Below, piece by piece: positions 463 to 41,476 of a DNA stretch of 64,000 bases (the first letter of the stretch is position 1; each line of letters opens with the position of its first letter). The translations under genes were made by a program, and so were the position numbers. The notes below the pieces were generated by a model. That model did no database searches. It saw only the letters and a list, made by a program, of their open reading frames with translations, and was not told the origin of the DNA. The stretch lies in assembly GCF_053078305.1 (NCBI RefSeq), contig NZ_CP166879.1; one strand, given 5' to 3'.

Positions 463-2610
463 TCAGGAAGCTGCCGGTCTGCTCTCTTCACTCTGCTGTT
501 TCCCTGACAGTCTTTTCAGTATTTCATCACGGGGACCGTCCATCATTACCCGCCCTTCATTCATCACGACAATACGGTCAACAATATTCAGAACCTGCAG
601 ACGATGTGTCACCACCACCATTGTGCGTCCCCGGCTCCAGTGGCTCAGACCTTTCAGAACAACAGACTCAGTCTGCAGGTCCAGACCTGTCGTGGGCTCA
701 TCAAGCAGTACCACCCGGGGAGACCCCAGTACCATTCTCGTCAGGGCAACCATCTGCCTCTGTCCTCCTGACAGCCCCTGACCGCCTTCCCCTGTCTGCA
801 TATCAAGTCCGCGGGGATGATGCCGGATAAAACGGTCAAACCCGAAACGTCCGGCTGCATTAATCATATCCACATCCGACAGGCTTCCCGGCAGACGCGA
901 AAGCTGCAGATTTTCACGCAGAGTTCCCAGAAAAAGCCGGGGATTCTGTTCCAGAAGAAACACTTTATCCCGGACAAAACAGGGGTCCAGTTGCTGCATC
1001 GCAACCCCGTCAAGAGTAATTTGTCCCCTGTTCTGACGGTACAGCCCCACCATCATTTTCAGCAGCGTCGATTTACCACAACCTATTGAGCCAATAATAC
1101 CCACCCGCTCTCCGGGCCGGATACAGAGCGACAAACCGCACAATGCGTCGGGTAATCCGGGCTTATAAGAAAAGGAGACATCACTGAAACGAAACTCTCC
1201 CTGGATATCCTTCACTGTCAGATAATGTGTCTGACTTTCCCGCTCCACCGGACGGCGGACAATGTCATTCACCCCCTGCATGGCCAGGCGGGCCTGCTGA
1301 AAACGGGTGGCCAGTGATGCTATCTGACCAAGCGGTGCCAGCGCACGACCGGAAAGAATAACTGCGGCAATCAGTGCCCCCATGGTGATTCGGTTATGTG
1401 GGTCATCACTGTGAATAAGGTACGTCCCCAGAATGACCAGCAGAACAGTATTCAGTTGCTGAACTGCTGTGGAAAAGCAGATTATGACATTACTGGTATT
1501 TTTTACCCGTATGGACGAGCGGGCGACACTGGCTGTATATCCATCCCAGCGGCGCTGGACCCAGTTAACTGCATTATTCAGCTTCAGGGTTTCTATTCCG
1601 TCCAGTGCCTCCACAAGTAATCCCTGGCGCTGCGATGATTCCCGCATGGAGGCATTAATATGACGCGAAAGCGGTCGCTGCAGTAATATTCCTGCCAGAA
1701 TCACCAGCGGAACCAGTGTAAGAGGAACAACAGCAAGCCAGCCCCCCACAAGCCCGATGACACCAATGAAAAGCAGGATAAACGGCAAATCCACAAAAGC
1801 CAGCAGCGTGGCGCTGGTCATAAACTCCCTGACAGACTCATATTCCCGCAAATTGCTGGCGTATGAACCGGAAGACGCCGGCCTGTCCGACATTTTCACT
1901 GCCATCACCCGCCTTAACAGTGCTGAGCTGATAATCAGGTCTGCCTTCTTACCCGCAATATCCGTCAGATAGCTCCGGATTAACTTTGCAGCACACTCAA
2001 ACAGAACGGCTGCAATCACCCCGATACTCAGCATCCATAACGTTTCCCAGGAGCGATTGGGTATGACCCGGTCATAAACGTTCATGACATACAGGGAACT
2101 GACCAGCGCAAGAAAGTTAATGATAAAACTCGCAAGAATGACCTGTCCGTAATATGGCCTGAACCGCCACAGTACCCGCCAGAACCATGCCCCGGTCATG
2201 TCATACTCCGGCAGTTCCGAACGGCGATCCTGTGTTGCCTGTGGCTGAACAAACCAGCAGTAACCTGAATAAACAGCCATTAATTCATCGTGAGAAAGTG
2301 TCTTACGGAGTCCCCCGGGCTGGAGTACATGATACTGCCGGGCCAGGCCGGCACCCTCAATACGCACCACCACAATGGCTTCCTGTGCATTCAGTAAAAG
2401 AAGCACAGGAACCGCAAGTGAAGGAATATCTTCCGGAGCCCGCCGGGAAAGATGATTATCGAACCCTTCACTGCGAAGAAACTCGCCAACAGAACGAAAA
2501 TCAATCCCGGAGACATCTGTCCGGACTGTACCGGCAGCCAGCGTCTCAGCAGATACAGGTGTACCCAGTAATGCCGTTACCTGTGATAATCCTTCAAAAA
2601 TACTCTTCAC
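463..2610 (-). CDS. Type I secretion ABC transporter (permease/ATPase) with N-terminal C39-like domain lacking the catalytic cysteine
   Basis: 715 aa; Walker A GSIGCGKST, ABC signature LSGGQRQ, Walker B VLLDEPT; six-TM core; no Cys in the first ~120 residues; apparent GTG start with AAGGA upstream. Confidence 0.9.
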   Translation of the reverse strand: MKSIFEGLSQVTALLGTPVSAETLAAGTVRTDVSGIDFRSVGEFLRSEGFDNHLSRRAPEDIPSLAVPVLLLLNAQEAIVVVRIEGAGLARQYHVLQPGGLRKTLSHDELMAVYSGYCWFVQPQATQDRRSELPEYDMTGAWFWRVLWRFRPYYGQVILASFIINFLALVSSLYVMNVYDRVIPNRSWETLWMLSIGVIAAVLFECAAKLIRSYLTDIAGKKADLIISSALLRRVMAVKMSDRPASSGSYASNLREYESVREFMTSATLLAFVDLPFILLFIGVIGLVGGWLAVVPLTLVPLVILAGILLQRPLSRHINASMRESSQRQGLLVEALDGIETLKLNNAVNWVQRRWDGYTASVARSSIRVKNTSNVIICFSTAVQQLNTVLLVILGTYLIHSDDPHNRITMGALIAAVILSGRALAPLGQIASLATRFQQARLAMQGVNDIVRRPVERESQTHYLTVKDIQGEFRFSDVSFSYKPGLPDALCGLSLCIRPGERVGIIGSIGCGKSTLLKMMVGLYRQNRGQITLDGVAMQQLDPCFVRDKVFLLEQNPRLFLGTLRENLQLSRLPGSLSDVDMINAAGRFGFDRFIRHHPRGLDMQTGEGGQGLSGGQRQMVALTRMVLGSPRVVLLDEPTTGLDLQTESVVLKGLSHWSRGRTMVVVTHRLQVLNIVDRIVVMNEGRVMMDGPRDEILKRLSGKQQSEESRPAAS

Positions 2611-2614
2611 TTAT

Positions 2615-3883
2615 TTATCTGTCCTTCTGCCCTGTTACTTTTTCTTCTGCACCAGAAAGATTCACTCCGCTCCATTTCAGGAGCATTCCCTGGGAATACA
2701 GATAATCCAGCATTCCGTGGAGCATCTGATCCTCTGTCTGAACCCGGGAAAGCCCGACGCTGTACAGTTCGTTTTCTGCATTCAGTAATTCAATCAGTGT
2801 TTTTCTTGCCACCCGGAACTGAAGACGATAAAAGTCCACAACTCTGGCAGAGGCCTGCTCCTGACGTCTGAGCGTTTCCATTTCCATCCGACTTTGTCTG
2901 ACCGTTATCAGCGATAATCGTCCGGTTTCATCAATCATTCGGGCAACAGAGTCCAGTCGTCCGGTAGCTGCAGCTATCTGCGCGGCCTTTTCACTGACAC
3001 CATAACTGGCATTACGGTTGAACAGGTCCCAGGACAGACTGACACCTATCTGCCTGTCATCCCGGGTCACTGATCCCGTTAAATCCACCCGGGGATACCG
3101 GGCAAGCTCCTGCGCTTTCAGCGCCGCTTTTTTACTCTCTACATCAGCCTGACTGGCAAGCCACGACGGATTCCCTTTCTGAGGCGTCTGCGTAAAATCA
3201 GTTAACAATCTGGACTCTGTCATCCGGGAAAAAGGATTTTCAAGATCGGCTTCGGTTACCGGATTTGTGGTCCAGGTCGAAAGTTTTCCCAGCGTGGTTT
3301 TGAGCACTCGGGTGCGGGTATTTATCTGCTGCCGGACCATCAGCCTGCGGGCTTCGGCCTGAACAAATTCAGATTCCCGCCCGGTATCGTGAATACTGAT
3401 GGTGTTAAGATCATTAAGAATTGCGTTATGCCGGGAGAGACTCTGTTCAAGTACCGCAATGGATTGCTTTTCCCTTAGCGCATCAAGATATAATGAAACA
3501 AAGGAGCGAATTGTTTCCTCGCCAGCCTCATCAACTTTATAACGGTAATACTCGGCTTCCGACTCACTCCGGCTGACATCCGCCTCAATAGCTCCCGAAG
3601 CGAATATATTCATTTCACCGCGGATACCGGGCAAAATATCTTCAGAGTCGTAGTCATAGTCGTAGCGGTGACTCTGGGAAAGGAGTTTACTGCCTGTTGC
3701 TGTGACGACCGGCCAGTGTGCTGAACGAGCCTGCTCCACACGGGAACGGGCAGAGGTGGCTTCTGCCCTTGCCTCCATCACTGATGGATCATGAATGAGA
3801 GCATCCCTCAGGAGGGCCGGCAGTGGAGAAGCGAACACGTTGTGGACAGAGAAAAGAAAACAGAAAGATAATATTCTCTTCAC
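2615..3883 (-). CDS. TolC-family outer membrane factor of the type I secretion system
   Basis: 422 aa with N-terminal signal peptide; encoded immediately upstream of, and tightly coupled to, the ABC transporter gene; GTG start preceded by GGAGG. Confidence 0.75.
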   Translation of the reverse strand: MKRILSFCFLFSVHNVFASPLPALLRDALIHDPSVMEARAEATSARSRVEQARSAHWPVVTATGSKLLSQSHRYDYDYDSEDILPGIRGEMNIFASGAIEADVSRSESEAEYYRYKVDEAGEETIRSFVSLYLDALREKQSIAVLEQSLSRHNAILNDLNTISIHDTGRESEFVQAEARRLMVRQQINTRTRVLKTTLGKLSTWTTNPVTEADLENPFSRMTESRLLTDFTQTPQKGNPSWLASQADVESKKAALKAQELARYPRVDLTGSVTRDDRQIGVSLSWDLFNRNASYGVSEKAAQIAAATGRLDSVARMIDETGRLSLITVRQSRMEMETLRRQEQASARVVDFYRLQFRVARKTLIELLNAENELYSVGLSRVQTEDQMLHGMLDYLYSQGMLLKWSGVNLSGAEEKVTGQKDR

Positions 3884-4564: not shown

Positions 4565-5300
4565 CTAAGCAGCCATCTGATAATATTTTATCCTGAAGGC
4601 TGTCGGGGAGATATTCCCCAGACGAGAGTGACGACGCTGACGATTGTAGAAAATCTCAATGTATTCCCGTATTACTGAGATGGCCTCATCCCGGCTTTTA
4701 AAACGATAGTGGCTCAGACTTTCATTTTTCAGCGTTCCCCAGAAGCTTTCCATCGGAGCATTGTCGTAACAGTTAACTTTACGCGACATTGATATTTTCA
4801 GACCAAACTGCTCCTGTATGGCCCTGTAATCGTATGCGCAGTACTGTGAACCACGATCGGAGTGGTGGATTAGCCCGGTAGGTGAGCGCTGGTTCCTGAG
4901 CGCCATAAACAGGGCTTTACCTGTCAGCTCTTTTGTCATGCGCTCTCCCATGGCGTAGCCGACAATTTCGCACGTATAAACATCTTTGACGCCAGCGATA
5001 TACAGCCATCCTTCCGGGGGGCAACATACGTTATATCTGCAACCAAGACCTGATTAGGTGCTGTAGGCGTAAAGTTCTGATTCAGGAGATTCGGCGCAAC
5101 CGGCAGATTGTGACCAGAGTTCGTGTTCGCCCTGAACTTGCGTTTCAGCTTACAGTGCAGCCTCAGCTCCTTACGAAGACGTGCCAGTCTGTCACGACCG
5201 ACGATAATTCCGTTATCTGCCAGCTCCGTCTGGAGCAGCTAGGTTCCATATGTTTCGCGTGTGCGGATATGTGCCACCTTAATCTCCAGTTTTAGCCGCT
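4565..5300 (-). mobile_element. IS3-family insertion sequence remnant (transposase OrfB C-terminal fragment, upstream frame broken)
   Basis: ORF 4565..4951 encodes an integrase-core C-terminus (HHSDRGSQY...CYDNAPMESFWGTLK...FYNRQRRHSRLG); no intact orfA or continuous orfB upstream; right boundary approximate. Confidence 0.6.
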
Positions 5301-5503
5301 CATCACTTTGTTTTCTGTCTGAGGGTCATGCTGTACTCAGTCGTAATAACCGATCCTGTATACACCAAGTACCCGACACATCGCTTCAATACATAATCGC
5401 ATCTGAATCGTTCACCGATTCGCGGCATTTTTCAAGGTAGTTGTCGCCATTGTTCGACTAACTGATCGACATTACAGCCTAGAGCCTAGCTGGGGGCTGT
5501 GCA

Positions 5504-5530
5504 CAAAAAAGCCCCGGACATTCCGGGGCT
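5504..5530 (-). terminator. Rho-independent terminator downstream of the lipoprotein gene
   Basis: Minus-strand hairpin AGCCCCGG-AATG-CCGGGGCT followed by TTTTTTG, just 3' of the stop at 5541. Confidence 0.6.
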
Positions 5531-5540
5531 ACACTGCATA

Positions 5541-6314
5541 TTAACGAACGCTCTGTCCGGTTATTTCAACCCTGCGGTTGGGGCGCAGACATTCCTTCAG
5601 TGCTTCGCCCTCCACATCCGGGCAGAACACCACTGGTGCATCATATCCACGGCCCGTTGCATGTATCCTTTCAGCCCTGAATCCCCGGGCAATAAACCAC
5701 CCCCTGACTGATTCCGCCCGTTTCTCTGACAGGAGCCGGTTATACGCCTGCCCGCCAAGATGGTCCGTAAATCCTTCTATCTTCACCCCGACAACATGAC
5801 CCGCCTGAAACTTCTCTGCCACACGGGAAAGTGCATCACGCCCCCTCTCTGTCAGAGTCCATGAATCAAAATCAAATAATATATCACCGGGGACTGACTC
5901 CCTGTATTCTGCTGTCTCTGCCTCCGGCAGACAGTTTTCCGGCTTCCAGTAGAAAGAGCGGGCATCCATGTTCCGGTCAAACAGTATCTTGTACTGGCAG
6001 GTATAATCCCCCTCCGGTCCGGTAAAGTTGAACAGGTAATCCCATTCCCTTACACCAGACATCCCTTCAGCAAAGTGTGGTCTCCCCGCCAGCTGATAAA
6101 TCTGGTCCTTATTCATACCCGCCTTTATCTGACGTAACTTTTCTGGCAGTGGCCACGAACCTTTCTGTGTTCCGTCATGATTAAACTTCACCTTCTCCGG
6201 AGAAGGCCATACCACTTCTTCCGTCGTTCCTTCATCCGTGACATGACTCAGATTTCCACATCCTGCAAGCATCAGGGACAGCACACCCGTCATCATCATT
6301 CGACTAAATAACAT
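5541..6314 (-). CDS. Outer membrane lipoprotein with BamE/SmpA-like N-terminal domain and OmpA-type peptidoglycan-binding C-terminal domain
   Basis: Lipobox LMLAGC; OmpA-like motifs (GFTDHLGGQAYNRLLSEKRAESV, NRRVEI); AAGGAG RBS; sits 25 bp downstream of the adhesin gene on the same strand. Confidence 0.8.
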   Translation of the reverse strand: MLFSRMMMTGVLSLMLAGCGNLSHVTDEGTTEEVVWPSPEKVKFNHDGTQKGSWPLPEKLRQIKAGMNKDQIYQLAGRPHFAEGMSGVREWDYLFNFTGPEGDYTCQYKILFDRNMDARSFYWKPENCLPEAETAEYRESVPGDILFDFDSWTLTERGRDALSRVAEKFQAGHVVGVKIEGFTDHLGGQAYNRLLSEKRAESVRGWFIARGFRAERIHATGRGYDAPVVFCPDVEGEALKECLRPNRRVEITGQSVR

Positions 6315-6338
6315 TACATTTCTCCTTGCTTTTCCCTG

Positions 6339-9300
6339 TTACCACTGCCAGCCCACACCGGCACCGACGGAGAAATTACCCCGGGTGTTCTGACCTGCAT
6401 TCAGTTTCATTATCATCTTACCGTTATCGGAGATTCGGGACACACCTATTGCAATGGCGCTTTCACCACCATATCCACCGACACCCAGCCCCATCAGACT
6501 TTTACCCGGCAGATAGGCCTGAGGTATCCCGCTCATGGCCGCAGCCGATGCGCCAACACCACGGATATCCCGGTTAAGCTCTTCCACCCGGTAGCTCAGC
6601 TGACTGAATTTATTCCCGAGAGTGTTTATCGCCTGTGTATTTCCGGCAACCTGACGGTTAGTTGCATGCAACTGACTGCCATTGACGGCATCCGTTGAAT
6701 TCGCAGACAACACACCCGGTGCCACTGACTGCAGCTGACGCTCCTGTCCCGGCTGACCAAAAGAAACCACCGCAGTATCACTTCCGGTACGTCCCGCAAC
6801 AGCCTGACCGTTCAGGGCATAAGTCCCGGTATTCGCGCGGCCAGCACGGGCATGGCTGCCAACTGCAACAGAGCCGGCAGCAGCCTGACGCGTGACTTCA
6901 GCACCATTACCCATGGCAATGCTGTTTTGTCCCCGGGAAACGGCTCCCTGTCCGACAGCAATGCTGTCACGTCCTTCCGCTTTTGCTGCCTGACCGGAAG
7001 AGGCTGCTTTAAAATACTTCGTGCCTTCACGGTTCAGCATATTCACTGCATCAGCCACATTATCCGGTGTTTTATGTACACCACCATTCACCGTTGTCTT
7101 ACCGCCACCTGCAGTTGTCAGCTCACTGAAGGTGTCAGGAGCCAGCGCTGCTTTTCCGTCTTTCCAGACAACATTATCACCGCCAGCAATTCTGGCTGCA
7201 GATGCCAGCTGGCTCCCGTTAACCGCATCCGTGGATACCGGTGACACATTTCCGGCCGCCACATTTGTCAGAACAAGAGGCTGCTCACTGCTTATTCTGA
7301 CACGGGCCGGCTCAGCCGGCGTCATTGTCAGTTTCCCGGTCGCAGCATCTTCGGTCTGTGTGTAAAAACGACCTCCAATATTGACAAGCGGGTTCCCCTG
7401 GCTGTCGGTGTACTCCACCGGAATCCCCGTCACATCAATCTCATAGCTGTAATTTCCCTTGTCATCCTTACTGATGGCTGAAACCCGGGTATTCTGTCCG
7501 TGGCGGACTTCAACTGTCTGGGAAGAAACAGCAACAGCCTCATCACCGGATTCAGTCTTCAGTGCCCAGGTCGTTGCTGCCGTTGCCTGACTGATTTCAC
7601 GGTTCAGTTGTGAAACGTTAACGGCGTCCTGGTCATTCACCCCGTCTTTCACGCCGGAAATAACCCGGCCAGCCGCATCAATACCGTTCACAGTCACTGA
7701 CGGGCCATCCTTGATGGTCAGCCCGTTTTTATCCATCCGGGTTCCGCCGACAGAAACGCTGCCGTCATCTCCCAGGCGAATGTTATCAGCGAGTCTGACC
7801 GTCAGGCTCCCGTTCTGAACAGTCGTGCTGATATTCTGCCCGTCACCACCAACCGTGATATGCTTCCCGAGAGACGTGTTCACCTTGCTTCCGTCATCCG
7901 CCTGCAGACCAAAGCCGGTATTCACCAGTGCCGCACTGCTGTCACGGAGAGCATTTTTCAGGTCACCGATATTGGCCGCATTATTCAGAACATCTCCACC
8001 GGCGTCAGCAAGCGCAGTGCCGTTCAGACCACTGGCCACACTGGTTATCTGATTTCCACCGTTATTCAGGCCGGAGCCGGTAAGGGAAACCGTATTCCCC
8101 TGACCACCGCCCGCAGCAGGTGTTGTGATTGTGATGCCTTTATCATTAACTGTTGTTATCTGCCCACCTGTACCAAAAACCGCGCTGGCCAAATCACGGA
8201 GGTTTCTGGTCATCCTCACCAGAAGCCCGCCATTATCATTATCAACCCGGATATTGCCGTCAGTCACTTCAGCATTCTTCTCTGCACCACCTTTGATGGT
8301 CAGTTTTTCATTCAGTTTTTTATGAATAACCTTTCCGTCATCACCCTCAAAAGAAAGACCGTCATTCATGGTCGCCAGCTCTTCTGCCGGTGATTTTCCA
8401 TCCGGGGTATAAGTCAGACGTGTCTTCGTGGTACCGGCAGCATCTGTTAATCCACCTTTGCCTGCATTAACAGCAATGGTTGCTGACGCAGACTTTCCAC
8501 CCGCAGCAGGCGAGGATGTCAGTTTAATCGTGCCATCCTGACCATTCAGACTCACAGCCTCCTTACCATCAGCCCCGTTAACTTTGATGCTGCCGGGAGT
8601 ATTATTGCTCCCAACGCTCAGGTCATTATTCAGGGATATTTTTAACCCCTTATCCCCATTGGTGATGGCTGTGGTGGTGATATTGCTGTCCCCGGATACT
8701 TTAATCGCCTGCCCAAGAGACTGTTTCACTTCCTTATCATCAGAGTCTTTCAGTGCGAAACCTGCACCCTGCATACTGGAGGACACACCATCAATTGCCG
8801 TTTTCAGGTCTGCAACACTGGCGGCATTTTTCATCTCTTTATCAGTATTCGTTAACGTCGAAAGTTCCTTACCTTCCAGTCCACTTGCCACACCACTGAT
8901 AACAACACCATTTTGTCCGGCACCATTACCGCCTGACAATGTCAGCTTATTACCTTCGGATGAGAGCGTTACACTTCCGTTATTTCCTTTTCCATTCAGC
9001 TGAACACTGCTGAATGACGGAGTATCAATAACAGAGAATGTAAAATCACCACCACTTTGTTTCACGCTGAGATTTTTACCGGCTTTCAGCGTAACCATAT
9101 CACCGGGTTTTATCAGTGTTTCTGTTCCCTGACCATTTCCCTCGATAACACCACCGGTATCTTTATCCGCTTTAATTTTCCAGCCAGACTGGTTTATGGC
9201 ATCAGCAATGTTTTTCGCAGTAACAAGTTTATCGCCATCACCATTGTTTACTGTAATCTTCCCGTTACCACCATTTACAGGCAACGAAGCTGTCTCTGCT

Positions 9301-10670
9301 GAAATCTCCAGTTTATCTCCAGCCACCTGGGTTTTTATTGGGCCTTTGCCAGTGATTTCGACATTGTCACCAAGACTCTTCGTCAGCGTCTTACCATCTC
9401 CACCTTTAATTTTGATGGCATCATTTTTTATTTCATTTTTCAGCGTTGTTCCGTCAATCGTCATTCCTTTATCATTAACAGTAACTGCAATATCTCCATC
9501 ACCTTTAACAGTTAAAGTGTTACCATTCTTATTATCCTTCCCACCATTAATAGTCGCAGAACCTCCCTTATCATCCTTTAGCGTCCACGTCGGATTAATG
9601 GCATCAAGGTCATCTTTCAGTGTCTTCGCTATCGCATATAACTGACTACCGTTAATGGCATCTGTACTTGTGTCAGAAATCGCACCCGCCCCCACGTTAA
9701 CAATCTGACGCTCTTTACCCGCATCACCAACAGATACTACTGATGCTGCGTTATTTCCGGCAAAGCCACTATATGTGACTTCCGCGCCTCTTTTAGTTCT
9801 GACCTTAGCCTCTGTTACTTTTTGTGCCTGCTTATCCCTGGAGTCAGCGCCGATGGACACGTTCCCCTTTGCGACAGTAACGGTTGCTCCATGCCCCAGG
9901 GCAACCGTTTCATTCTGAGCGGCATTTGCCTCTGAACCAACAGCAAGAGCATCGTTTTTATTTGCAGAGGACTGACTACCAACGGCCAGAGCATTACCGG
10001 CATTAGCCAGCGCATTAAAACCAACCGCAGTCGCCATATCCCCTTTAGCTTCCGCCGTGGCTCCAATTGCATTCGAGGCCATCCCCTCAGCAGAACTCAC
10101 CGAACCAAGCGATACTGACAATTCGCCTTTAGCAAAAGTTCTGCTGCCCAGCGCAATACTGCCATCCCCCTGCGCTTCCGATGCAAGATAGCCATTCTCT
10201 ATTTTTTCCCGACCATAAGTCTTACCATGCAAAGGAGTTAAATCATCCCCACCAATAACAATAGCCCCCCATCCGGTAGCTTTGGTATCGCCACCTATTG
10301 CAATTGACTGTTCTTTAGTTGCTTTCGTTTTCGCTCCTATCGCAATAGACTCGCCTGTGTACAAACCTTCCTTCGTGCTAATGTCACCTCCAGCCTCTGC
10401 ACTGGTACCAATCGCGATAGAGTTACGTCCTTCAGCCACCGGTGATTTATGGTCGAAATTAATTCCCTTTGATTCATCTTTTGCTGTAAATTTCGTTGTA
10501 CCTATTTCAATGCTCTTCCAGTCATCGCCATAGACATCATGGCCAAGGCTGGTTTCATCAACTTCAACAGTTAACTTATTTGTATCTGCCTGAGCACTGA
10601 CCTGTGATATGGATGCCGGATTAAGAACAAGTGATATGGCTATACAGATATGTTTTTTTCTGAGGTTCAT
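6339..10670 (-). CDS. Trimeric autotransporter adhesin (type Vc, YadA-like anchor)
   Basis: 1443 aa from ATG at 10670 (AAGGAG RBS); repeated neck/head motifs (DAINGSQL, DAVNGSQL, NVSQLN); C-terminal anchor ending GNFSVGAGVGWQW. Confidence 0.9.
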   Translation of the reverse strand: MNLRKKHICIAISLVLNPASISQVSAQADTNKLTVEVDETSLGHDVYGDDWKSIEIGTTKFTAKDESKGINFDHKSPVAEGRNSIAIGTSAEAGGDISTKEGLYTGESIAIGAKTKATKEQSIAIGGDTKATGWGAIVIGGDDLTPLHGKTYGREKIENGYLASEAQGDGSIALGSRTFAKGELSVSLGSVSSAEGMASNAIGATAEAKGDMATAVGFNALANAGNALAVGSQSSANKNDALAVGSEANAAQNETVALGHGATVTVAKGNVSIGADSRDKQAQKVTEAKVRTKRGAEVTYSGFAGNNAASVVSVGDAGKERQIVNVGAGAISDTSTDAINGSQLYAIAKTLKDDLDAINPTWTLKDDKGGSATINGGKDNKNGNTLTVKGDGDIAVTVNDKGMTIDGTTLKNEIKNDAIKIKGGDGKTLTKSLGDNVEITGKGPIKTQVAGDKLEISAETASLPVNGGNGKITVNNGDGDKLVTAKNIADAINQSGWKIKADKDTGGVIEGNGQGTETLIKPGDMVTLKAGKNLSVKQSGGDFTFSVIDTPSFSSVQLNGKGNNGSVTLSSEGNKLTLSGGNGAGQNGVVISGVASGLEGKELSTLTNTDKEMKNAASVADLKTAIDGVSSSMQGAGFALKDSDDKEVKQSLGQAIKVSGDSNITTTAITNGDKGLKISLNNDLSVGSNNTPGSIKVNGADGKEAVSLNGQDGTIKLTSSPAAGGKSASATIAVNAGKGGLTDAAGTTKTRLTYTPDGKSPAEELATMNDGLSFEGDDGKVIHKKLNEKLTIKGGAEKNAEVTDGNIRVDNDNGGLLVRMTRNLRDLASAVFGTGGQITTVNDKGITITTPAAGGGQGNTVSLTGSGLNNGGNQITSVASGLNGTALADAGGDVLNNAANIGDLKNALRDSSAALVNTGFGLQADDGSKVNTSLGKHITVGGDGQNISTTVQNGSLTVRLADNIRLGDDGSVSVGGTRMDKNGLTIKDGPSVTVNGIDAAGRVISGVKDGVNDQDAVNVSQLNREISQATAATTWALKTESGDEAVAVSSQTVEVRHGQNTRVSAISKDDKGNYSYEIDVTGIPVEYTDSQGNPLVNIGGRFYTQTEDAATGKLTMTPAEPARVRISSEQPLVLTNVAAGNVSPVSTDAVNGSQLASAARIAGGDNVVWKDGKAALAPDTFSELTTAGGGKTTVNGGVHKTPDNVADAVNMLNREGTKYFKAASSGQAAKAEGRDSIAVGQGAVSRGQNSIAMGNGAEVTRQAAAGSVAVGSHARAGRANTGTYALNGQAVAGRTGSDTAVVSFGQPGQERQLQSVAPGVLSANSTDAVNGSQLHATNRQVAGNTQAINTLGNKFSQLSYRVEELNRDIRGVGASAAAMSGIPQAYLPGKSLMGLGVGGYGGESAIAIGVSRISDNGKMIMKLNAGQNTRGNFSVGAGVGWQW

Positions 10671-11307
10671 ATATACCCTCTTTTCTCCTTTATTTTCTTC
10701 CACTCAGTCGGAATAGCATAAAAATCATGCATGAATATTATGTAAGGTGGACTACCTTCATTTCTTCAGCATCCATTTTTTATAAAGCCAGAAGTGAACA
10801 AAACGGGAACCATTAAAAAGCAGACAAAAGGCAATAAAGTGATTTATAATAATGCAAACATAAAACATATTAAGTTTAAGTAAACTACCCGACATTACGC
10901 GTTACAGCAGAATGCAGGTACACTACCTGCCATTGCCTGACGCACTGGCGAAGGCAGTAAAAATGAGATACATTTCACTTCGCAGCAAAAAAAACGAAAT
11001 CCTGCAATTTTTCTGATTTTACTGACAGAAAAGCCCGAGAGTTAAATTTAAATAACTTAAAAGATTCTGTGGTATAATCAGGTTCATACAGGCCTGATTG
11101 TTTCACAGGAAATTAAATCTTTTAAATCAACAGGCTATGGAGGTGTAATGGTGATGAATTGTGTAAAGATAGAGTGTGAGTATAACTGGAGTAATAAAAC
11201 CAAATTAAAATTATCAATATTTAACAAATGTAATTTATTAAGTTTATTTTTATCAAAATTAAAAGCATTACAACCTGGAAGCTGACGTTACTGATTACTA
11301 TACTGGT

Positions 11308-11330
11308 ACCTGAGGCGCACGGCCTCAGGT
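11308..11330 (-). terminator. Possible stem-loop terminator downstream of the TonB-dependent receptor gene
   Basis: Inverted repeat ACCTGAGGC-GCACG-GCCTCAGGT immediately 3' of the stop at 11344; weak U-tract on the minus strand. Confidence 0.35.
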
Positions 11331-11343
11331 TATCTATATTCTC

Positions 11344-13392
11344 TCAGAAGGATATTCTTACATTAGCCCAGTAACGACGTCCTTCATCGACCTGCCAGTT
11401 ACCATCAATGGTATCGATATCTTCGCTCTTTCTGTCTGTGACGTTAAGTACGGCAAAATTAATCAGCGTGCCTGGCAGGAACTGGTAATTCATACCAATA
11501 TCCATAGAAGTGAATCCATTACGAACACGGGGAACCTTGGCACCATTTCTTTGTGCTGCCCAGATTTGTTTTCCTGTATAATTCAGAGATGAATAAAATG
11601 TAATATCCTGAGTGTAATCCCATTCCAGTTTTGCATTGGCTGCATGTCTGGGAGTTCTTTCCAGAGGTTCCCCTTTCAGCGACTTGCCATTGAGACTTTC
11701 GTCATCGCTTTCTCGACGGGAGTCAGTGAATGTATAGTTTGCAGATACACGCCATTTATCATACACAGGAATCTGAGTTGCAAGCTCCACACCTCTGATA
11801 TTTGCCTCACCCACATTATCATAAATAAAAGTGTTTAGCCCAGTGACTGGATCTTTTGTGCCTATATCGTAACTGGTCAGCTTATTTTTAAAATCTGTAT
11901 TAAACAGAGTCGCGCTTGCTGAAAAACCACTGTCATTATTATAAATAATACCGATCTCTTCGGTTACACTGGTCTCCGGTTTCAGGTCCCTGTTTCCATA
12001 CATAATAGAGGCACCACCCTGCGTCAGTGTTCCAAATCCAGGACTGACCTCACGAATCGAAGGGGCCCGAAATGCTTTTGCGATCCCTCCTTTGAGAGTG
12101 AGATTATCGGTCAGGTTATAAACAGCATACAATCTTGGATTCCAGTAACTGCCATAGATTTCATGGTTATCGAGGCGCAACCCTCCAGTCAGGGCGAGAG
12201 AATCCGTTGCAGCATATTCATTTTCTATAAAAACAGCTTTCTGTTTAACTGAAACAGACTGTGTTTCTGTCGTTTTTTTACCTGTGGCTGAGTCATCACG
12301 GAGTTCTGCATGCTGAAATTGACCTCCGATGGTCAGCACATTTTCCGGCAGAAATGCCGTCACTTTTGCATCTATGATCGTGTTGGTTATTTCCGGTTTT
12401 CTTGACTCGTAATTAAGATCCCAATGATTATATTTATCTTTTTTACCAGATTTAACCTCACGAATAACTTTCTCCTGATAAACAGCAATTTCAGGATGCA
12501 GTATTTCGCCCTGGGCATTCCATGCTGCTACCCAGTGACTACGTGAGTTATGTGTTTCTCTTTTACTGTTTGGTTGTTTAAGATTTCCCCGCATAGTCCA
12601 GGCATCAAGAGAATCACCAGGTGTTAATGTATGTTCCTGGTTATTTTTTCCGTATTCAAAAACAAACTTCTGGCTTTCAGTCGGAGTAAACTGGAGTGTT
12701 GCCGTTATATTCTTATTATCTTTTGCTGGTGTTCCCTGAGAGATACTATCTTCCTTGCGATAGTTCATTCCTCCATATAACTGAAGACCAAGTTTATCCT
12801 TAACCAATGGGCCTGACAGGTAGAAGTCATTCGTGGTTGAGTTACCAAATTTCCCATGTTCCTGAATAATTCCCCCAAGCCCAAGTACGCCATCCCATGT
12901 CTGGTTATTAACAGGTTTGGTTATGATATTAATAACTCCTCCGATAGCATCGGAACCATACAGGGAAGACATAGGGCCACGTATAACTTCAATACGCTCA
13001 ATTGCTTCCACAGGAGGGATAAATCCGGCTTCAAAACCGCCGCTGCCGTTTGGTCTGGATTCCCGACCACTCTGACGTCGTCCATCGACCAGAATCAATG
13101 TATAATCGCCACTTAACCCACGTATACTGATATCCGGTTTTTCATTCCCACCGGTGATACTAATCCCTTCAACATCTTTTACCGCATCGACCAGGTCTGA
13201 AACCGGTTTTTTTTGCAGTTGCTCTGAAGTAATGACTGAAACACTGGCCGGTGCATTTCTGAGTTGCTGAGTGAAGCCGGAGGCAGTAACAACAAGCGTA
13301 TCTTCTTTTTTATCAGAACTGGCATAACCTGATGATATGACTGCAGAACATATCACGGCAATGCCCGGAGCAATGATATATTTGTTCTTCAT
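11344..13392 (-). CDS. ireA: TonB-dependent outer membrane siderophore receptor, IreA-like
   Basis: 682 aa from ATG at 13392 (RBS AAGGGA); signal peptide, plug and beta-barrel features, C-terminal aromatic residue; N-terminus matches my recollection of E. coli IreA; Fur box upstream. Confidence 0.8.
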   Translation of the reverse strand: MKNKYIIAPGIAVICSAVISSGYASSDKKEDTLVVTASGFTQQLRNAPASVSVITSEQLQKKPVSDLVDAVKDVEGISITGGNEKPDISIRGLSGDYTLILVDGRRQSGRESRPNGSGGFEAGFIPPVEAIERIEVIRGPMSSLYGSDAIGGVINIITKPVNNQTWDGVLGLGGIIQEHGKFGNSTTNDFYLSGPLVKDKLGLQLYGGMNYRKEDSISQGTPAKDNKNITATLQFTPTESQKFVFEYGKNNQEHTLTPGDSLDAWTMRGNLKQPNSKRETHNSRSHWVAAWNAQGEILHPEIAVYQEKVIREVKSGKKDKYNHWDLNYESRKPEITNTIIDAKVTAFLPENVLTIGGQFQHAELRDDSATGKKTTETQSVSVKQKAVFIENEYAATDSLALTGGLRLDNHEIYGSYWNPRLYAVYNLTDNLTLKGGIAKAFRAPSIREVSPGFGTLTQGGASIMYGNRDLKPETSVTEEIGIIYNNDSGFSASATLFNTDFKNKLTSYDIGTKDPVTGLNTFIYDNVGEANIRGVELATQIPVYDKWRVSANYTFTDSRRESDDESLNGKSLKGEPLERTPRHAANAKLEWDYTQDITFYSSLNYTGKQIWAAQRNGAKVPRVRNGFTSMDIGMNYQFLPGTLINFAVLNVTDRKSEDIDTIDGNWQVDEGRRYWANVRISF

Positions 13393-13413
13393 AAATTTCC
13401 CTTTTCTAAAATC

Positions 13414-13432
13414 GTAATGATAATGATTTGCG
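13414..13432 (-). promoter_or_regulatory. Fur box upstream of the ireA-like gene
   Basis: AATGATAATGATT core matches 12 of 13 positions of the Fur consensus core AATGATAATCATT, 22-40 bp upstream of the start codon. Confidence 0.5.
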
Positions 13433-14158
13433 TTAGCAAGAAAAAATTTACAATGAACAGAAAGGAAGGTAAATAACATTTAGCTCATTCAGGTAACACT
13501 TTGAACCTGTCCGACTTGATGAGAATCAGCCCCTTTCTACGAGGGACTCCTTACTGTATAATTTATAGTCCTGTCGAAGAGGTAAAATCTTTCAACCGGA
13601 TATCTCCATAAACAGCATTCCAGTAAATCAAGCAAGAGTGAACAGGAGACTGGTGCTGTTTATTACGGTATGCTTGTCCGATGTGGTGGAAAATAAAAAT
13701 GGGCGACTGACCAGATATGGGAGTCTCCGGTCAGTCATTCGCTTGTAGATGCAGGACATAAGCGAACCAAGGCCCACTGCTTCTGCGCAAAAGCAAGGGG
13801 GAGTTTACCCTGGTAGATTGAGTTTCGCGTCACTGACCAGTCAGAGCTTCAGACTCATCTTACACCACTAACCCCCTTACCACTCCTGAATCTTCCCTCG
13901 GCAACAGCCAAGACAGTATCGTACTGTTCACCACCATCTTTTCCCGTGAATGACAGTAAGTGCAAAGCCCCAATATAAATCAGTACTTCCGATGACAGAC
14001 AGTGAAGGCGTAAGGTGAAATATGCACGTAAGGCAGTATGACTTTCCGTGAGACAGATGCTGTCCAACGTGGGATATTTAATGCGGGTTAACATCGTTGT
14101 CAGAGCCGCATGGGTGAGCTGTTGCTACCCCCCTGGAATTTCCACCACGGAGGCCAGC

Positions 14159-20260: not shown

Positions 20261-21853
20261 TTATTTATTGGTGAGTACTACGTTCCATGGCAAGAGTTCA
20301 TCAACTCGGTTGGAAGGCCATTCCGGCAGTACGCTCAGGATATGGCGCAGATACGCTTCCGGATCGATACCGTTCAGACGGCAGGTGCCGATCAGCCCGT
20401 ACAACAGTGCTCCACGCTCGCCGCCGTGATCGCTGCCAAAGAACATAAAGTTTTTCTTTCCGAGACAGACTGCACGAAGCGCTCTTTCCGCAGCATTATT
20501 ATCCGCCTCCGCCAGACCGTCATCACTGTAATAACAGAGGGCATCCCACTGATTCAGTACATAGCTGAACGCTTCGCCCAGTCTGGATTTTTTCGACAGC
20601 GTACCATTCTTCTCCACCATCCATTCATGCAGCGACGTCAGTAACACTTTGCTTCGCTGCTGCCTGACGGAAAGACGCTCTGACTCCGGTAATCCCCGTA
20701 TTTCATCCTCGATGGCGTACAGTTCACTGATTCGCTTCAGGGCTTCTTCTGCCTTCGCACTTTTGCTGCTGATGTATACATCGTGGATTTTTCGCCGGGC
20801 ATGGGCCCAGCACGCAACTTCTGTCAGTGCACCACCTTCACGTTCTGCACTGAACAACCTGTCGTAACCTGTGAACGCATCCGCCTGCAGGATACCCCGG
20901 AAGGGGCGGAGGTGTTGCTCCGGGTGTTTCCCCTGCCGGTTCGGCGAGTACGCGAACCAGACCGCTGGAGGAGATGACGAACCCACATTGCGATCATCCC
21001 GGACATACGTCCAGATACGCCCTGTTTTCGCCTTTTTCTGACCCGGTGCCAGTACCTTTACCGGTGTGTCATCAGTGTGAACCTTGCGGGTGTTCATTAC
21101 ATAACGGTACAGGGCATCATTCACCGGTGTCATTAACTGGCAGCACGCGTCAACCCAGTTGGAGAGTAAGGCCCGGCTCAGTTCGACACCCTTGCGGGCA
21201 AAGATTTCACTCTGACGATACAGTGGCAGATGTTCGCAGTATTTTCCCGTTAACACGCGGGCAAGTAATCCGGGGCCCGCGATACCACGCTCTATCGGGC
21301 GGGACGGCGCCGGTGCTTCAACGATGCAGTCACATTTTGTACAGGCTTTTTTTACCCGTTCTGTGCGGATCACTTTCAGGGCGCTGCTCACCAGTTCCAG
21401 TTGTTCTGCACTGACTTCCCCCAGATAATCCAGCTCACCGCCACACTCCGGGCAACAGCTTTCTTCAGACTCCAGACGGTGTATTTCACGGGGAAGGTGT
21501 GCCGGTAACGGACGACGATGGCGCGACTGTCGCAACTGGCGGGGAACCTGTGGATCGTCTTCCCGCCCACTGTAACGATCGCTGTCCTGTTCGCGTTGTT
21601 TCAGCAGGGCCTCAGCCTGTTCAACTTCACGACGCAGTTTTTCAGAACGGGTACCGAACAGCATCCGGCGCAGTTTTTCTATCTGAGCCCGCAGATGTTC
21701 TATTTCCCGTTCATCTTCTTCGATCTTTTCTTCGGCACGTGCCAGTGCAGAGCGCAGGAAGGCCTCCGTCTCTTCAACCAGACTCAGTTGCTGGTCTTTC
21801 TGACGGAGCTGGCTTTCCAGTTCTGCAATGCGAATGAGGTATTTCTGACTCAT
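20261..21853 (-). CDS. IS66-family transposase (TnpC / Orf3)
   Basis: 530 aa; N-terminal coiled-coil/leucine zipper and zinc-finger-like CxxC pairs (CPECG, CTKCDC) typical of IS66 transposases. Confidence 0.9.
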   Translation of the reverse strand: MSQKYLIRIAELESQLRQKDQQLSLVEETEAFLRSALARAEEKIEEDEREIEHLRAQIEKLRRMLFGTRSEKLRREVEQAEALLKQREQDSDRYSGREDDPQVPRQLRQSRHRRPLPAHLPREIHRLESEESCCPECGGELDYLGEVSAEQLELVSSALKVIRTERVKKACTKCDCIVEAPAPSRPIERGIAGPGLLARVLTGKYCEHLPLYRQSEIFARKGVELSRALLSNWVDACCQLMTPVNDALYRYVMNTRKVHTDDTPVKVLAPGQKKAKTGRIWTYVRDDRNVGSSSPPAVWFAYSPNRQGKHPEQHLRPFRGILQADAFTGYDRLFSAEREGGALTEVACWAHARRKIHDVYISSKSAKAEEALKRISELYAIEDEIRGLPESERLSVRQQRSKVLLTSLHEWMVEKNGTLSKKSRLGEAFSYVLNQWDALCYYSDDGLAEADNNAAERALRAVCLGKKNFMFFGSDHGGERGALLYGLIGTCRLNGIDPEAYLRHILSVLPEWPSNRVDELLPWNVVLTNK

Positions 21854-39793: not shown

Positions 39794-41476
39794 TTAAACA
39801 CCAGACATCATAACTTTAGTATTTTTTACTGCGTTATCATTCAATCGCTGCTGATCATCCATGTACCATACAGAACGAATCCAGCGATCATTTGGTTTAT
39901 TCGGAAAAACGAACGCCTTATTACCTTTAGGACCAAAGCGATGGATAAAAATCTCTCCCGTTGTAGGATCCACCCATAAATTACCATCAGACTCAATATT
40001 CCAGTTGGCAGAACAATGGGTGTATTTTCCGATAATATACAACTCTTCCTCAGTAAAAGCCTGAGGCTCTTGCCCCAAACGTACCGCTTTTCCCTGAGCA
40101 ATGGCTTTATCAACAAAAGGAATTAATTCAGGAGATAAATTCATATCTGGATTTTTGGGGTCAATTGGAGCAAACAATACCCCTGCTTCCTGAGCAGCAT
40201 CCAGCATCACACGCAGGCAAACATTAGCCCAGTCATTAGGTACTGCCATACGCTCAAAAAATACTGCGGCTCCCACCTGCTTTTGTATCACGCCAGCCCG
40301 ACGTTGATTGCTGTTGTTCACACCTACGGAACGAATTTTGGTGGTTAGTTTTCCATGAGGCAAAATATGTTTTAAGGCTGGCAGAGTCATCAACATTTTT
40401 CTGGCTTGCTCTGCATTACGGTATACTCGCGTATCTGTTTCTCTGGTATCGTCACTGACAATTTCAAATGCCGGGCAACTCAGAAACAGACTTTCATTTT
40501 CCTGCAGAGGTGAACCTACCGGATTGTAACCACCTCCAATATCTGAATGCGCCCCTGGTAAAGCCAGTTCGGGCCACATACCTTTAATACTGTTCAGGCT
40601 GAAATTATATCGGTATTCATTCATTGCAGTAATCTGGAAAACTTTCTTCGCGATGGAAGGACGCAATTCCAGCTTTACTCCCGGGTTGCTACGTCCATTA
40701 ATATCGAAGAAATTACTGATTCCACCAATAGCTGCGACAGTATCAAAAAGCCCCAGAAAACGGACTTCACCCGAAGGTTTACCATCATAAAAATCGCCTC
40801 TGAGCCCTTTAGCAATAGCTCTGGCTATAGCAGGATCCTGTTCCATAACCCGATTAGCAAAGTGCCTTGCCGCCGCTGCTCCCCGGCTAAAACCAAAAAC
40901 ATCAAACTGGATTTTTGCGATACAAAAATCAGGATTTAAATTGAACCCCATAAATTCTGATAACGCTTGGGTGATTCGTTCCATTGCCTCGTCGGTTTTC
41001 GTCACCACACCTTCAAATATATCCAGAATACTGGTGCCTAATCCCATGCCAATGACTGAATCTGCTTCACCAGCCGCAGTCCCTATCCCGGAAATGTAAG
41101 TCTGAATTTGTGCTTCAACCTGACTTTCCAACAAAGTCTGATCTGCTACGTAAAGTGAATTTAGCCAGTGGATATTGGAATAATATCCACGATAACTGCC
41201 ATTCGAGATACTGTTCTTGTTAATTTCTTCAAGAAAGTCCTCACAGCTTTGTGCATCTTTTTGATTTACCCCCTGTCTGGCTGCACTACACTCATTAAAT
41301 TTCATCAGACGAGATGCTGTATTCTCCCGATTGTTTCCGGTACCATCGAAAAATATACCAATGGTTAAAGTCACACCCCGCGCCGGTTTTTTCTTTGCAA
41401 CAACAACTTTCCAGTCATTATGAATACTGGTTTTATGGGTGGCATCTGTTACATCATATCCCTGATATTTTGTCAT
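39794..41476 (-). CDS. T6SS phospholipase effector, Tle1 family (DUF2235 alpha/beta hydrolase)
   Basis: 560 aa; hallmark motifs GIFFDGTGNN and GFSRGAAAARHF (GxSxG); start overlaps the vgrG stop (ATGA). Confidence 0.85.
   Translation of the reverse strand: MTKYQGYDVTDATHKTSIHNDWKVVVAKKKPARGVTLTIGIFFDGTGNNRENTASRLMKFNECSAARQGVNQKDAQSCEDFLEEINKNSISNGSYRGYYSNIHWLNSLYVADQTLLESQVEAQIQTYISGIGTAAGEADSVIGMGLGTSILDIFEGVVTKTDEAMERITQALSEFMGFNLNPDFCIAKIQFDVFGFSRGAAAARHFANRVMEQDPAIARAIAKGLRGDFYDGKPSGEVRFLGLFDTVAAIGGISNFFDINGRSNPGVKLELRPSIAKKVFQITAMNEYRYNFSLNSIKGMWPELALPGAHSDIGGGYNPVGSPLQENESLFLSCPAFEIVSDDTRETDTRVYRNAEQARKMLMTLPALKHILPHGKLTTKIRSVGVNNSNQRRAGVIQKQVGAAVFFERMAVPNDWANVCLRVMLDAAQEAGVLFAPIDPKNPDMNLSPELIPFVDKAIAQGKAVRLGQEPQAFTEEELYIIGKYTHCSANWNIESDGNLWVDPTTGEIFIHRFGPKGNKAFVFPNKPNDRWIRSVWYMDDQQRLNDNAVKNTKVMMSGV

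Follow-up and report, generated by a model that had tools for sequence, protein, structure and literature searches.

A Sab-type trimeric autotransporter adhesin and a TpgA-family lipoprotein form a probable two-gene operon beside ireA in Escherichia coli

The window analyzed here is a stretch of 64,000 nucleotides from contig NZ_CP166879.1 (assembly GCF_053078305.1). Its minus strand carries, in this order, an AT-rich intergenic region that follows ireA, a long adhesin gene, a short spacer, a lipoprotein gene and an intrinsic terminator. The adhesin ORF spans 6339..10703 if counted from an in-frame GTG. We place the start at the ATG at 10670, which has GAGG just before it and gives a protein of 1443 aa, and near-identical RefSeq records give the adhesin the same length. 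The features of the locus are as follows.

10671..11343, minus strand: AT-rich intergenic region from the ireA stop codon to the adhesin ATG, presumed promoter/regulatory region (GC content)
6339..10670, minus strand: trimeric autotransporter adhesin, 1443 aa, classed as a mosaic Sab allele, stop codon 6339-6341 (Pfam; comparison with Sab)
6342..6524, minus strand: predicted YadA-type membrane anchor, residues 1383-1443 of the adhesin (Pfam; alignment to 9vnj_A and Hia)
6501-6503, minus strand: codon of adhesin K1390, equivalent of AtaA K3576, which contacts TpgA
6426-6428, minus strand: codon of adhesin D1415, equivalent of AtaA D3601, which contacts TpgA
6315..6338, minus strand: spacer with the AAGGAG ribosome-binding site of the lipoprotein gene (sequence)
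5541..6314, minus strand: TpgA-family lipoprotein, 257 aa, stop codon 5541-5543 (Pfam BamE and OmpA; NCBIfam TpgA)
6258-6269, minus strand: lipobox L-A-G-C19
5931..6155, minus strand: predicted TpgA-N-like (BamE-fold) domain, residues 54-128 (phmmer and Foldseek against 9vnj_B)
5547..5915, minus strand: predicted OmpA_C-like peptidoglycan-binding domain, residues 134-256 (Foldseek against 4rha; alignment of OmpA C-domains)
5503..5530, minus strand: intrinsic terminator, hairpin AGCCCCGGA-AUG-UCCGGGGCU followed by U6 (folding)

A preliminary description of this DNA had called the first product a 1443-aa trimeric autotransporter adhesin (TAA), and both the length and the class hold. Pfam matches cover the head (YadA_head, 4.3e-17, three stretches), the stalk (YadA_stalk, 4.2e-30, four stretches) and the C-terminus (YadA_anchor, 5.9e-19), and a further match of the anchor, at about 1e-18, is to the Hia translocator (2gr7/3emo). 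By these matches the protein is classed as a type Vc autotransporter with YadA-like head repeats, a coiled stalk and a YadA-type anchor, a type that supplies four strands to a 12-stranded barrel. Aligned with reference-type Sab, it is 81% identical overall. Over the C-terminal ~480 aa the two are almost the same, and the final 500 aa hold only 4 mismatches. The near-identity does not run along the whole length: divergence is strong over the first ~560 residues. The adhesin is most fittingly called a mosaic allele, or variant, of Sab, the STEC adhesin of pO113. Herold, Paton and Paton are said to have reported in 2009 that Sab, an STEC autotransporter of pO113, mediates biofilm formation. Near-identical copies of the allele found here adjoin ehxCABD on STEC plasmids.

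The lipoprotein gene lies closely downstream, as had been described, although the spacer measures 24 nt (CAGGGAAAAGCAAGGAGAAATGTA) and not 25 bp; it includes the Shine-Dalgarno sequence of the second gene. RNA structure across the junction was not significant (z 0.10). The strong terminator noticed earlier is also borne out by folding: starting 10 nt past the lipoprotein stop codon, at 5530..5510, it has a 9-bp stem with 7 G-C pairs and a T6 run, and it folds better (z-score -3.88) than any of 200 shuffles. Because of the 24-nt gap, the unstructured junction and the single downstream terminator, we infer that the adhesin and the lipoprotein share one transcript, which would start in the AT-rich region.

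Between the adhesin ATG and the stop codon of ireA, this upstream region measures 673 bp; counting from the GTG instead recovers the 640 bp given previously. Its GC content is 33.7%, against 48.3% in the window as a whole, and among all stretches of 673 bp it falls in the lowest 2.7%. Ten sigma-70-like matches were found there against 8.1 +/- 2.3 expected, not above chance, and an H-NS proxy motif (TCGATAAATT, allowing up to 2 mismatches) matched twice against a mean of 1.15 in windows of similar AT content, showing no enrichment. The H-NS-silenced promoter suggested before may exist, but only the AT-richness speaks for it. The region holds no GATC site, which makes a Dam-dependent switch like those of pap and agn43 improbable. 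It showed neither a small ORF of note nor a remnant of the PapB-like regulator present upstream of other sab alleles, and an Rfam scan of 5300-11400, with E up to 0.1, returned no match. Taken together, the adhesin, the lipoprotein, the spacer, the terminator and the AT-rich upstream region are not a chance pattern.

The 257-aa lipoprotein combines the two domains expected from the preliminary description, a BamE-like one (Pfam BamE, 2.7e-14, residues 54-115) and an OmpA-like one (Pfam OmpA, 1.9e-16, residues 146-228), and the AlphaFold model of the full protein has a pLDDT of 91.7. Its best NCBIfam match is TpgA and spans the full length; however, the score against the TpgA equivalog NF047726 (119.9 bits) is well under the cutoff of 350. 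Judged from its sequence, the protein is a distant relative within the TpgA family and not an equivalog of Acinetobacter TpgA. The N-domain is about 27% identical to TpgA-N. With phmmer it matches TpgA-N (9vnj_B) at E 1.5e-11, against 0.011 to 0.9 for solved BamE chains. Foldseek with the whole-protein model returned OmpA-domain matches only, and the fold comparison used a separate model of the N-domain alone; here the best PDB match is again 9vnj_B (TM 0.82, rmsd 2.5 A), with BamE structures at 0.62-0.69. By sequence and predicted fold, the N-domain groups with TpgA-N and not with BamE. The C-domain model superposes on the OmpA C-domain 4rha (TM 0.90, rmsd 1.3 A), its putative peptidoglycan-binding residues D184 and R199 do not vary across 70 homologues, and it also has a C231-C242 pair. 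The OmpA domain is missing from 64 of 150 family representatives, so peptidoglycan tethering cannot be the only role of the family.

In Acinetobacter, TpgA attaches to the AtaA barrel from the periplasmic side, and the two form a 3:3 complex, seen in crystal structure 9vnj (PMC12523085). Alignment to 9vnj_B shows that its K64-D65 are conserved as K69-D70 in our lipoprotein, and alignment to 9vnj_A and Hia shows that AtaA K3576 and D3601 are conserved as K1390 and D1415 in our adhesin. Among TAAs encoded upstream of a lipoprotein homologue, the contact aspartate is kept in 29/29 and the lysine in 28/29. Hia also has the aspartate, which alone is therefore not specific. The hydrophobic tip is less well kept: TpgA L80-F81 corresponds to M85-S86 here (S86 codon TCT, 6057-6059), and the aromatic contact residue is absent. 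An aromatic occupies this position in 115 of the 118 motif-bearing sequences among the 120 nearest homologues and is missing from about 15% of diverse family members. On the adhesin side, a loop reads M-I-M where AtaA reads W-S-I, which probably corresponds to the published 'WI' contact of AtaA.

The pairing of the two genes recurs in other genomes, as the preliminary description had proposed checking. Both are present in 56 of 60 sampled E. coli records, and every intact lipoprotein allele examined in E. coli lies 19-40 nt 3' of a TAA, a range that holds for all seven distinct adhesin-lipoprotein allele pairings. In 80 related loci we found 28 anchor ORFs, all directly upstream of the lipoprotein gene on the same strand and none elsewhere in the loci. 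The other nearest species-level homologues (52/80, a few of them at contig ends and uninformative) have no TAA within 7 kb and are mostly PlpD/Plp4 of Pasteurellaceae, so the lipoprotein fold can exist without a linked adhesin. In the Neisseria clade all informative homologues are TAA-linked, and in Alcaligenaceae, the sister clade of the E. coli proteins, linkage holds at every locus having upstream sequence.

The module moves as a unit between chromosomes and plasmids, with IS remnants at its bounds. Identity to the plasmid copies begins at 11142 upstream and has its downstream edge at 5505, at the terminator, and the stretch 10671 to 11142 accompanies the operon onto ehx plasmids. Within the module, the anchor together with the lipoprotein N-domain makes up a single block with 94-100% identity to canonical Sab; divergence is seen in the head, the OmpA domain and the promoter. 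We count this apparent co-inheritance of anchor and N-domain in support of a functional pair.

Our best explanation, to which we give a probability of roughly 0.8 from sequence, models and analogy, is a two-gene operon in which a Sab-type trimeric autotransporter adhesin is tied to the cell wall by a TpgA-type partner lipoprotein. The lipoprotein would be exported, lipidated at Cys19 and, having Gly at +2, sorted to the inner leaflet of the outer membrane. Its N-terminal BamE-fold domain would dock on the adhesin's 12-stranded barrel at its periplasmic loops, each adhesin chain receiving one lipoprotein (3:3), mainly through K69 with D1415 and D70 with K1390. The OmpA-like C-domain would hold peptidoglycan non-covalently via D184 and R199. 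Docking at one end and peptidoglycan binding at the other would tie the adhesin to the cell wall, giving more surface display and making the adhesin harder to pull from the membrane under shear. The complex, the peptidoglycan binding and the effect on display were shown for AtaA-TpgA in Acinetobacter only (PMC12523085, PMC13082670), and by this analogy we infer that the E. coli lipoprotein binds its adhesin. The idea of a dedicated assembly or anchoring helper put forward earlier is supported by the match to AtaA-TpgA, by N-domain sequence and fold, by the conserved residues and by linkage. It is right, but the biology was already known: the taa-tpgA cassette has been published in work since 2016, with Escherichia among the listed hosts (PMC12523085).

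Could the lipoprotein instead be a BamE paralogue that acts transiently with the BAM machinery while the adhesin barrel is inserted and is then released? Pfam does call the N-domain BamE, RefSeq sometimes names the protein 'outer membrane protein assembly factor BamE', the fold is common to both, and the first role reported for TpgA was to aid AtaA biogenesis (PMC12523085). However, solved BamE chains are marginal matches next to TpgA-N, a BAM subunit would not need an added peptidoglycan-binding domain, and TpgA-N itself differs from BamE at the BamA- and BamD-binding regions and did not co-isolate with other barrel proteins (PMC12523085). We consider this reading very unlikely. Equally small is the probability that we give to a general OmpA-family envelope tether such as PlpD/Plp4, which would have nothing specific to do with the adhesin and would neighbor it only through a common mobile module. 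The 52 homologues that adjoin no TAA and the transfer of the module as a unit, bounded by IS remnants, fit such a tether. Against it, the intact E. coli alleles keep their 19-40 nt spacing despite differing heads, promoters and flanks, copies with upstream sequence are all linked outside the Pasteurellaceae/Pelistega clade, all linked anchors keep the adhesin residues that face the partner, and in Acinetobacter taa and tpgA were gained and lost together (PMC6363060).

The missing aromatic raises a different doubt, namely that this TpgA homologue has had its stable binding weakened or abolished by F86S and is a decaying or only transient partner. The canonical Sab-linked lipoprotein has the tip M-F and so keeps F86, in an N-domain with 126 of 128 residues equal to this allele, and S86 replaces an aromatic whose mutation reduced binding in Tol 5. 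Yet the single change F81A in Tol 5 TpgA weakened the pull-down and did not abolish binding (PMC12523085), the K-D electrostatic pairs are intact here, and other family members lack the aromatic as well. Moreover, the S86 allele (WP_000899430.1) is intact and widespread on chromosomes and plasmids, its cluster counting 572 member sequences, which argues for a maintained function. Loss of binding through F86S is therefore improbable in our view, and the tethered Sab-type pair is the reading that we keep.

A more speculative extension concerns the block shared with the canonical Sab pair, in which just 6 of about 630 residues differ. Two of these are S86 of the lipoprotein (F in Sab) and M1419 of the adhesin (V in Sab), and both positions align with the contact between TpgA F81 and the AtaA tryptophan. 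Across about six lineages, the tip-loop pairing is F-V three times in E. coli, S-M and A-L, though F-M also occurs once. Stalk, anchor and lipoprotein N-domain might be a co-evolving mobile 'anchor cassette' that takes different heads, peptidoglycan-binding domains and promoters, with the hydrophobic contact re-tuned here into a natural compensatory variant relying mainly on the two salt bridges. We hold this idea doubtful.

At least one review places Sab among the classical (type Va) autotransporters. Sab serves as a virulence marker of LEE-negative STEC. What is recognized here is that Sab-type adhesins are trimeric autotransporters, always accompanied by a putative TpgA-type cell-wall tether. 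None of the papers searched connects TpgA with Shiga-toxigenic E. coli or Sab. Given the constant pairing, experiments that clone or delete sab by itself may misestimate what it adds to adherence and biofilm formation, and the partner lipoprotein could be a target for loosening the adhesin. Otherwise the finding adds one more host to the published taa-tpgA biology, which it confirms, and raises no new question.

Among known systems, AtaA-TpgA of Acinetobacter sp. Tol 5 and Ata-TpgA of A. baumannii have the same gene order, TAA then partner. TpgA and our lipoprotein share the two-domain build (BamE-fold N-domain and OmpA_C-like domain), and the K-D of the partner together with the K and D of the anchor loops are common to AtaA-TpgA and the E. 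coli pair. The tip is M-S here and L-F in TpgA, the lipobox of the E. coli protein is clear while the literature describes TpgA as periplasmic, and the adhesin has 1443 aa compared to 3630 aa for AtaA. SadA-SadB of Salmonella, and the UpaG/EhaG loci of E. coli, are lipoprotein-TAA operons too, where the lipoprotein promotes surface display. According to the literature, SadB is an inner-membrane lipoprotein that forms trimers and acts transiently (PMC12523085). Our lipoprotein, with BamE-fold and OmpA-like domains and a predicted outer-membrane sorting signal, has another architecture and belongs to another family; a SadB-type helper is ruled out by this difference in domain architecture.

BamE shares the alpha-alpha-beta-beta-beta fold and is likewise a lipoprotein, and our protein passes the Pfam BamE gathering score (53.1 vs 23.2) but resembles the solved BamE chains only marginally in sequence. 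Unlike BamE, which is housekeeping, it has an extra peptidoglycan-binding domain and a gene linked to an adhesin. The closest relatives outside E. coli, PlpD/Plp4 of Pasteurellaceae (46-50% identity), also have both domains and a lipobox, with the tip L-Y or L-F. Most are stand-alone chromosomal genes, unlike the gene studied here, and a minority are TAA-linked, such as the one 3' of an EmaA-like adhesin in Aggregatibacter segnis. A further close system is Sab itself. The two loci hardly differ in stalk, anchor and lipoprotein N-domain, and the operon layout is equal. By contrast, the heads are 50-70% identical, the lipoprotein OmpA domains show 52-80% DNA identity and a 12-aa linker difference, and the region upstream is unrelated to that of canonical sab and lacks the PapB-family regulator gene preceding it. 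Sab lies on pO113, while the copy described here is chromosomal and adjoins ireA.

The arrangement given in the preliminary description, a trimeric autotransporter adhesin (TAA) gene, a lipoprotein gene with BamE- and OmpA-like domains, a terminator and an AT-rich upstream region, is present in the sequence, on the minus strand:

6339..10703, minus strand, adhesin ORF: long frame, with an in-frame GTG start
5541..6314, minus strand, lipoprotein ORF: 257 aa

The adhesin has the 1443 aa claimed for it when read from the ATG at 10670, which is preceded by GAGG, and near-identical RefSeq copies are annotated with the same length. Its Pfam domains are YadA_head, YadA_stalk and a C-terminal YadA_anchor (residues 1383-1443). 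The lipoprotein gene does lie close 3' of the adhesin gene, but the spacer, described as 25 bp, counts 24 nt; it holds an AAGGAG ribosome-binding site, and the junction shows no significant RNA structure (z 0.10). The lipoprotein carries a lipobox (LAG-C19) and the two domains proposed, Pfam BamE at residues 54-115 and Pfam OmpA at residues 146-228. Ten nt past its stop codon stands the strong terminator, a 9-bp G+C-rich hairpin and six U (folding z-score -3.88; 0 of 200 shuffles fold as well).

Homology, fold, contact residues and linkage all point to an operon of the taa-tpgA type (probability about 0.8), in which the two E. coli proteins would bind each other and their genes would be co-transcribed. 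The lipoprotein belongs to the TpgA family. Its best NCBIfam match, NF047726 ('trimeric autotransporter adhesin/peptidoglycan-associated protein TpgA'), is full length at 119.9 bits, under the equivalog cutoff of 350. Among solved structures, the N-domain matches TpgA-N in 9vnj, the AtaA-TM/TpgA-N crystal structure of Acinetobacter sp. Tol 5, with an E of 1.5e-11, and the best BamE chain with only 0.011. The whole-protein AlphaFold model, built from 70 homologues (pLDDT 91.7), has two domains, and its predicted C-domain superposes on the OmpA C-domain with a TM of 0.90 and an rmsd of 1.3 Å. Modelled alone (pLDDT 88.7), the N-domain finds chain 9vnj_B as top PDB match (TM 0.82, rmsd 2.5 Å), ahead of BamE structures (TM 0.62-0.69). 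Across 70 full-length homologues the peptidoglycan-binding Asp/Arg (D184, R199) are invariant, and conservation is 90% or higher for the lipobox Cys, K69 and two Cys pairs.

Judged by its sequence, the adhesin is a mosaic Sab allele; Sab, the STEC adhesin of pO113, was reportedly described in 2009. It is 81% identical to pO113-type Sab, with the first ~560 residues strongly diverged and only four differences in the last 500; lipoprotein residues 1-128 differ at two positions between the pairs. The profile of identity to the canonical sab operon runs as follows:

Upstream region: unrelated, at about 30%
Adhesin head: 50-70%
8143 down to 5944, stalk, anchor and lipoprotein N-domain: 94-100%
OmpA domain: 52-80%

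In Tol 5, pull-down of AtaA depends on TpgA K64 and F81, and TpgA K64 pairs with AtaA D3601 and TpgA D65 with AtaA K3576 (PMC12523085). We transferred these contact residues to the E. coli pair through the 9vnj alignments. TpgA K64-D65 correspond to K69-D70 of the lipoprotein, and AtaA K3576 and D3601 to K1390 and D1415 of the adhesin, all conserved; adhesin anchors upstream of a homologue (n=29) carry the Asp in 29/29 cases and the Lys in 28/29. TpgA L80-F81 become M85-S86, where the aromatic residue is missing. A hydrophobic plus aromatic tip is found in 115 of the 118 motif-bearing members among the 120 nearest homologues, and the aromatic residue is absent in about 15% of 150 diverse family representatives. 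The 267-aa lipoprotein allele beside canonical Sab retains Phe at the tip. Relative to that pair, M1419V (6414-6416) and S86F (6057-6059) align with the hydrophobic contact between an AtaA Trp and TpgA F81, and other alleles combine tip and loop as F/V, F/M and A/L. At most, this hints at compensation between lipoprotein residue 86 and adhesin residue 1419.

Co-occurrence of the two genes in other genomes, proposed earlier as a check on the pairing, was borne out within E. coli. A query of the adhesin 3' end plus the lipoprotein gene matched 98 genomes. Of 60 records drawn from all parts of the ranking, 56 have both genes under the match; the exceptions are three transposase-cut fragments and one anchor-only match. 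The seven distinct allele pairings examined have gaps of 19-40 nt. Beyond E. coli the co-occurrence held in part. We scanned with the N-domain profile, one genome per species, and took the 80 best loci: in 28 a YadA-type anchor ORF on the same strand stops 75-260 nt before the gene, whereas 52 have no TAA within 7 kb, and no anchors were found elsewhere in the 80 loci. The unlinked loci are nearly all Pasteurellaceae PlpD/Plp4-type lipoprotein genes, and a few of the 52 are uninformative because they lie at contig ends; an Avibacterium homologue lies downstream of a sohB-like gene, not of a TAA. Linkage is below the 91% published for 'cluster I' (PMC12523085), probably because Pasteurellaceae dominate our sample. 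In a rough neighbour-joining tree the E. coli alleles sit beside TAA-linked Alcaligenaceae copies, the Neisseria clade is wholly linked, and informative orphans are confined to the Pasteurellaceae/Pelistega clade. TAA linkage is the rule in the lineage of this gene, not universal in the family.

Three other readings of the lipoprotein can be set against a TpgA-type partner. Were it a transient assembly factor associated with BAM, a closer likeness to BamE than the marginal one seen would be expected, and we regard this as very unlikely. Much the same holds for a general envelope lipoprotein merely hitch-hiking beside the adhesin, since linkage is strict across E. coli alleles even though these differ in head, promoter and flanks. 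A partner weakened by F86S is slightly less improbable, though still doubtful: the S86 allele is intact and widespread, and is not private to the window, for S86 occurs in the 257-aa allele WP_000899430.1 on ehx plasmids and ireA-linked chromosomal islands.

The N-domain family comprises 523 clusters at 50% identity; the best 150 representatives include 64 short forms without the OmpA domain and 81 of two-domain length. All Neisseria-clade homologues are short (about 157-176 aa, no OmpA domain) and lie about 120 nt 3' of a TAA anchor ORF (Neisseria/Uruburuella loci L015-L017, L021, L022, L024, L026, L027, L030, L032, L035, L036, L047, L056). As these short forms are all TAA-linked, the N-domain seems to have a function independent of peptidoglycan binding. 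Most Pasteurellaceae homologues (loci L014-L093; e.g. L018, L023, L045 Avibacterium; L082 Haemophilus aegyptius; L003/L004), PlpD/Plp4-type with the same two domains and an L-Y or L-F tip, stand alone and lack a TAA within 7 kb. The genomes of Rodentibacter myodis (L085/L043) and Pasteurellaceae 15-036681 (L070/L080) carry both kinds, orphan and TAA-linked. Because Hia retains the TpgA-contacting Asp, orphans might serve unlinked adhesins in trans.

The region's DNA is E. coli. Among 5,426 complete genomes 86 have a match to it, the majority of them from Shiga-toxigenic strains, more commonly on plasmids (74 places) than chromosomes (22 places). The chromosomal order, as in the window, is ireA, adhesin, lipoprotein, IS3 remnant, TolC/type I secretion cluster; on plasmids the pair lies directly 5' of ehxCABD, the enterohaemolysin operon. 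Plasmids of the pO113 type carry an adhesin gene that is annotated sab and has 99.8% identity to the AMRFinder reference; the gene of an 'OmpA family' lipoprotein comes 27 nt after it, with ehxCABD next. The window and an ehx-plasmid copy are essentially identical from 11142 down to 5505, which makes this ~5.6-kb stretch a mobile unit. Directly past the terminator lies a degraded IS3-family transposase (4565-5390, with a 128-aa ORF fragment at 4565-4951), annotated in matching genomes as a frameshifted pseudogene; taken with the IS66 and IS110 remnants that related genomes have beyond ireA, it marks the module edge at about 5505. The TonB-dependent siderophore receptor gene ireA (11344-13479) is directly upstream on the same strand, and a strong hairpin without a U-run (z -4.09) stands 3' of it at 11308-11330.

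From the adhesin ATG to the ireA stop codon there are 673 bp (640 bp from the GTG), and the proximal 470 bp move together with the operon. This region is AT-rich, as first described (GC 33.7% vs 48.3% for the window; lowest 2.7% of same-size windows). For the H-NS silencing suggested with it, AT-richness is the one point in favour: the high-affinity H-NS motif is matched no more often here than in the window's other AT-rich stretches. Sigma-70-like matches are at chance level, and the region holds no Rfam match, GATC site or small ORF of note. A PapB-family gene ('adhesin biosynthesis transcription regulatory family protein') lies just 5' of canonical sab and one other allele (L009 4570-4854; L095 1330-1644) and has no trace in the unrelated sequence upstream of the window's allele, so that regulation here probably differs from that of canonical sab.

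Elsewhere in the window, 463-3883 holds a type I secretion ABC permease/ATPase gene (463-2610) and a gene of the TolC family (2615-3883); in matching genomes these are followed by an HlyD adaptor gene and one for a 'beta strand repeat-containing protein' of very large size, suggesting that the island encodes a second giant adhesin or RTX-like system. A type VI secretion cluster spans about 26400-54100 (TssM/IcmF-like 34265-37654, VgrG 41473-43992, ClpV 44923-47619). An 893-aa protein (23046-25727) with AAA_11/AAA_12 superfamily-1 helicase domains and a C-terminal DUF2726 adjoins an IS66 transposase (20261-21853) and may be a defence-type gene. A second low-GC stretch (<37% GC, about 56.1-59.3 kb; window 56100-61200) adjoins a C39-peptidase ABC exporter gene (59040-61160), as is typical of loci for bacteriocin or microcin export.

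A lipoprotein with Gly at +2 goes, by the Lol sorting rule, to the inner leaflet of the outer membrane. By homology, the E. coli lipoprotein, with Gly at +2, would sit there, bound through its N-domain to the periplasmic loops of the Sab-type barrel and through its OmpA-like domain to peptidoglycan. For the Acinetobacter pair, tpgA and ataA form one operon and TpgA was isolated with peptidoglycan and AtaA (PMC12523085); TpgA-N binds the AtaA barrel as an A3B3 complex (9vnj), and simulations suggest that with TpgA bound about twice as much force is needed to pull the anchor out of the membrane (PMC13082670). The genes ata and tpgA are gained and lost together (PMC6363060). The taa-tpgA cassette is already published (Ishikawa 2016, as relayed by papers citing it; PMC12523085), a 2026 survey counts 644 TpgA homologues adjoining TAAs, and the genera in the TpgA cluster include Escherichia (PMC12523085). 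Sab and the window's allele carry a YadA-type anchor (6342-6524) and so are type Vc; a 2013 review puts Sab among classical (type Va) autotransporters (PMC3796261). Given this listing, and as we found no paper tying Sab or STEC to TpgA in the literature searched, the trimeric nature of Sab-type adhesins and their pairing with a TpgA-type tether may be under-appreciated. This point is an application of known biology, and the operon itself is an uncharacterised member of a known cassette type.
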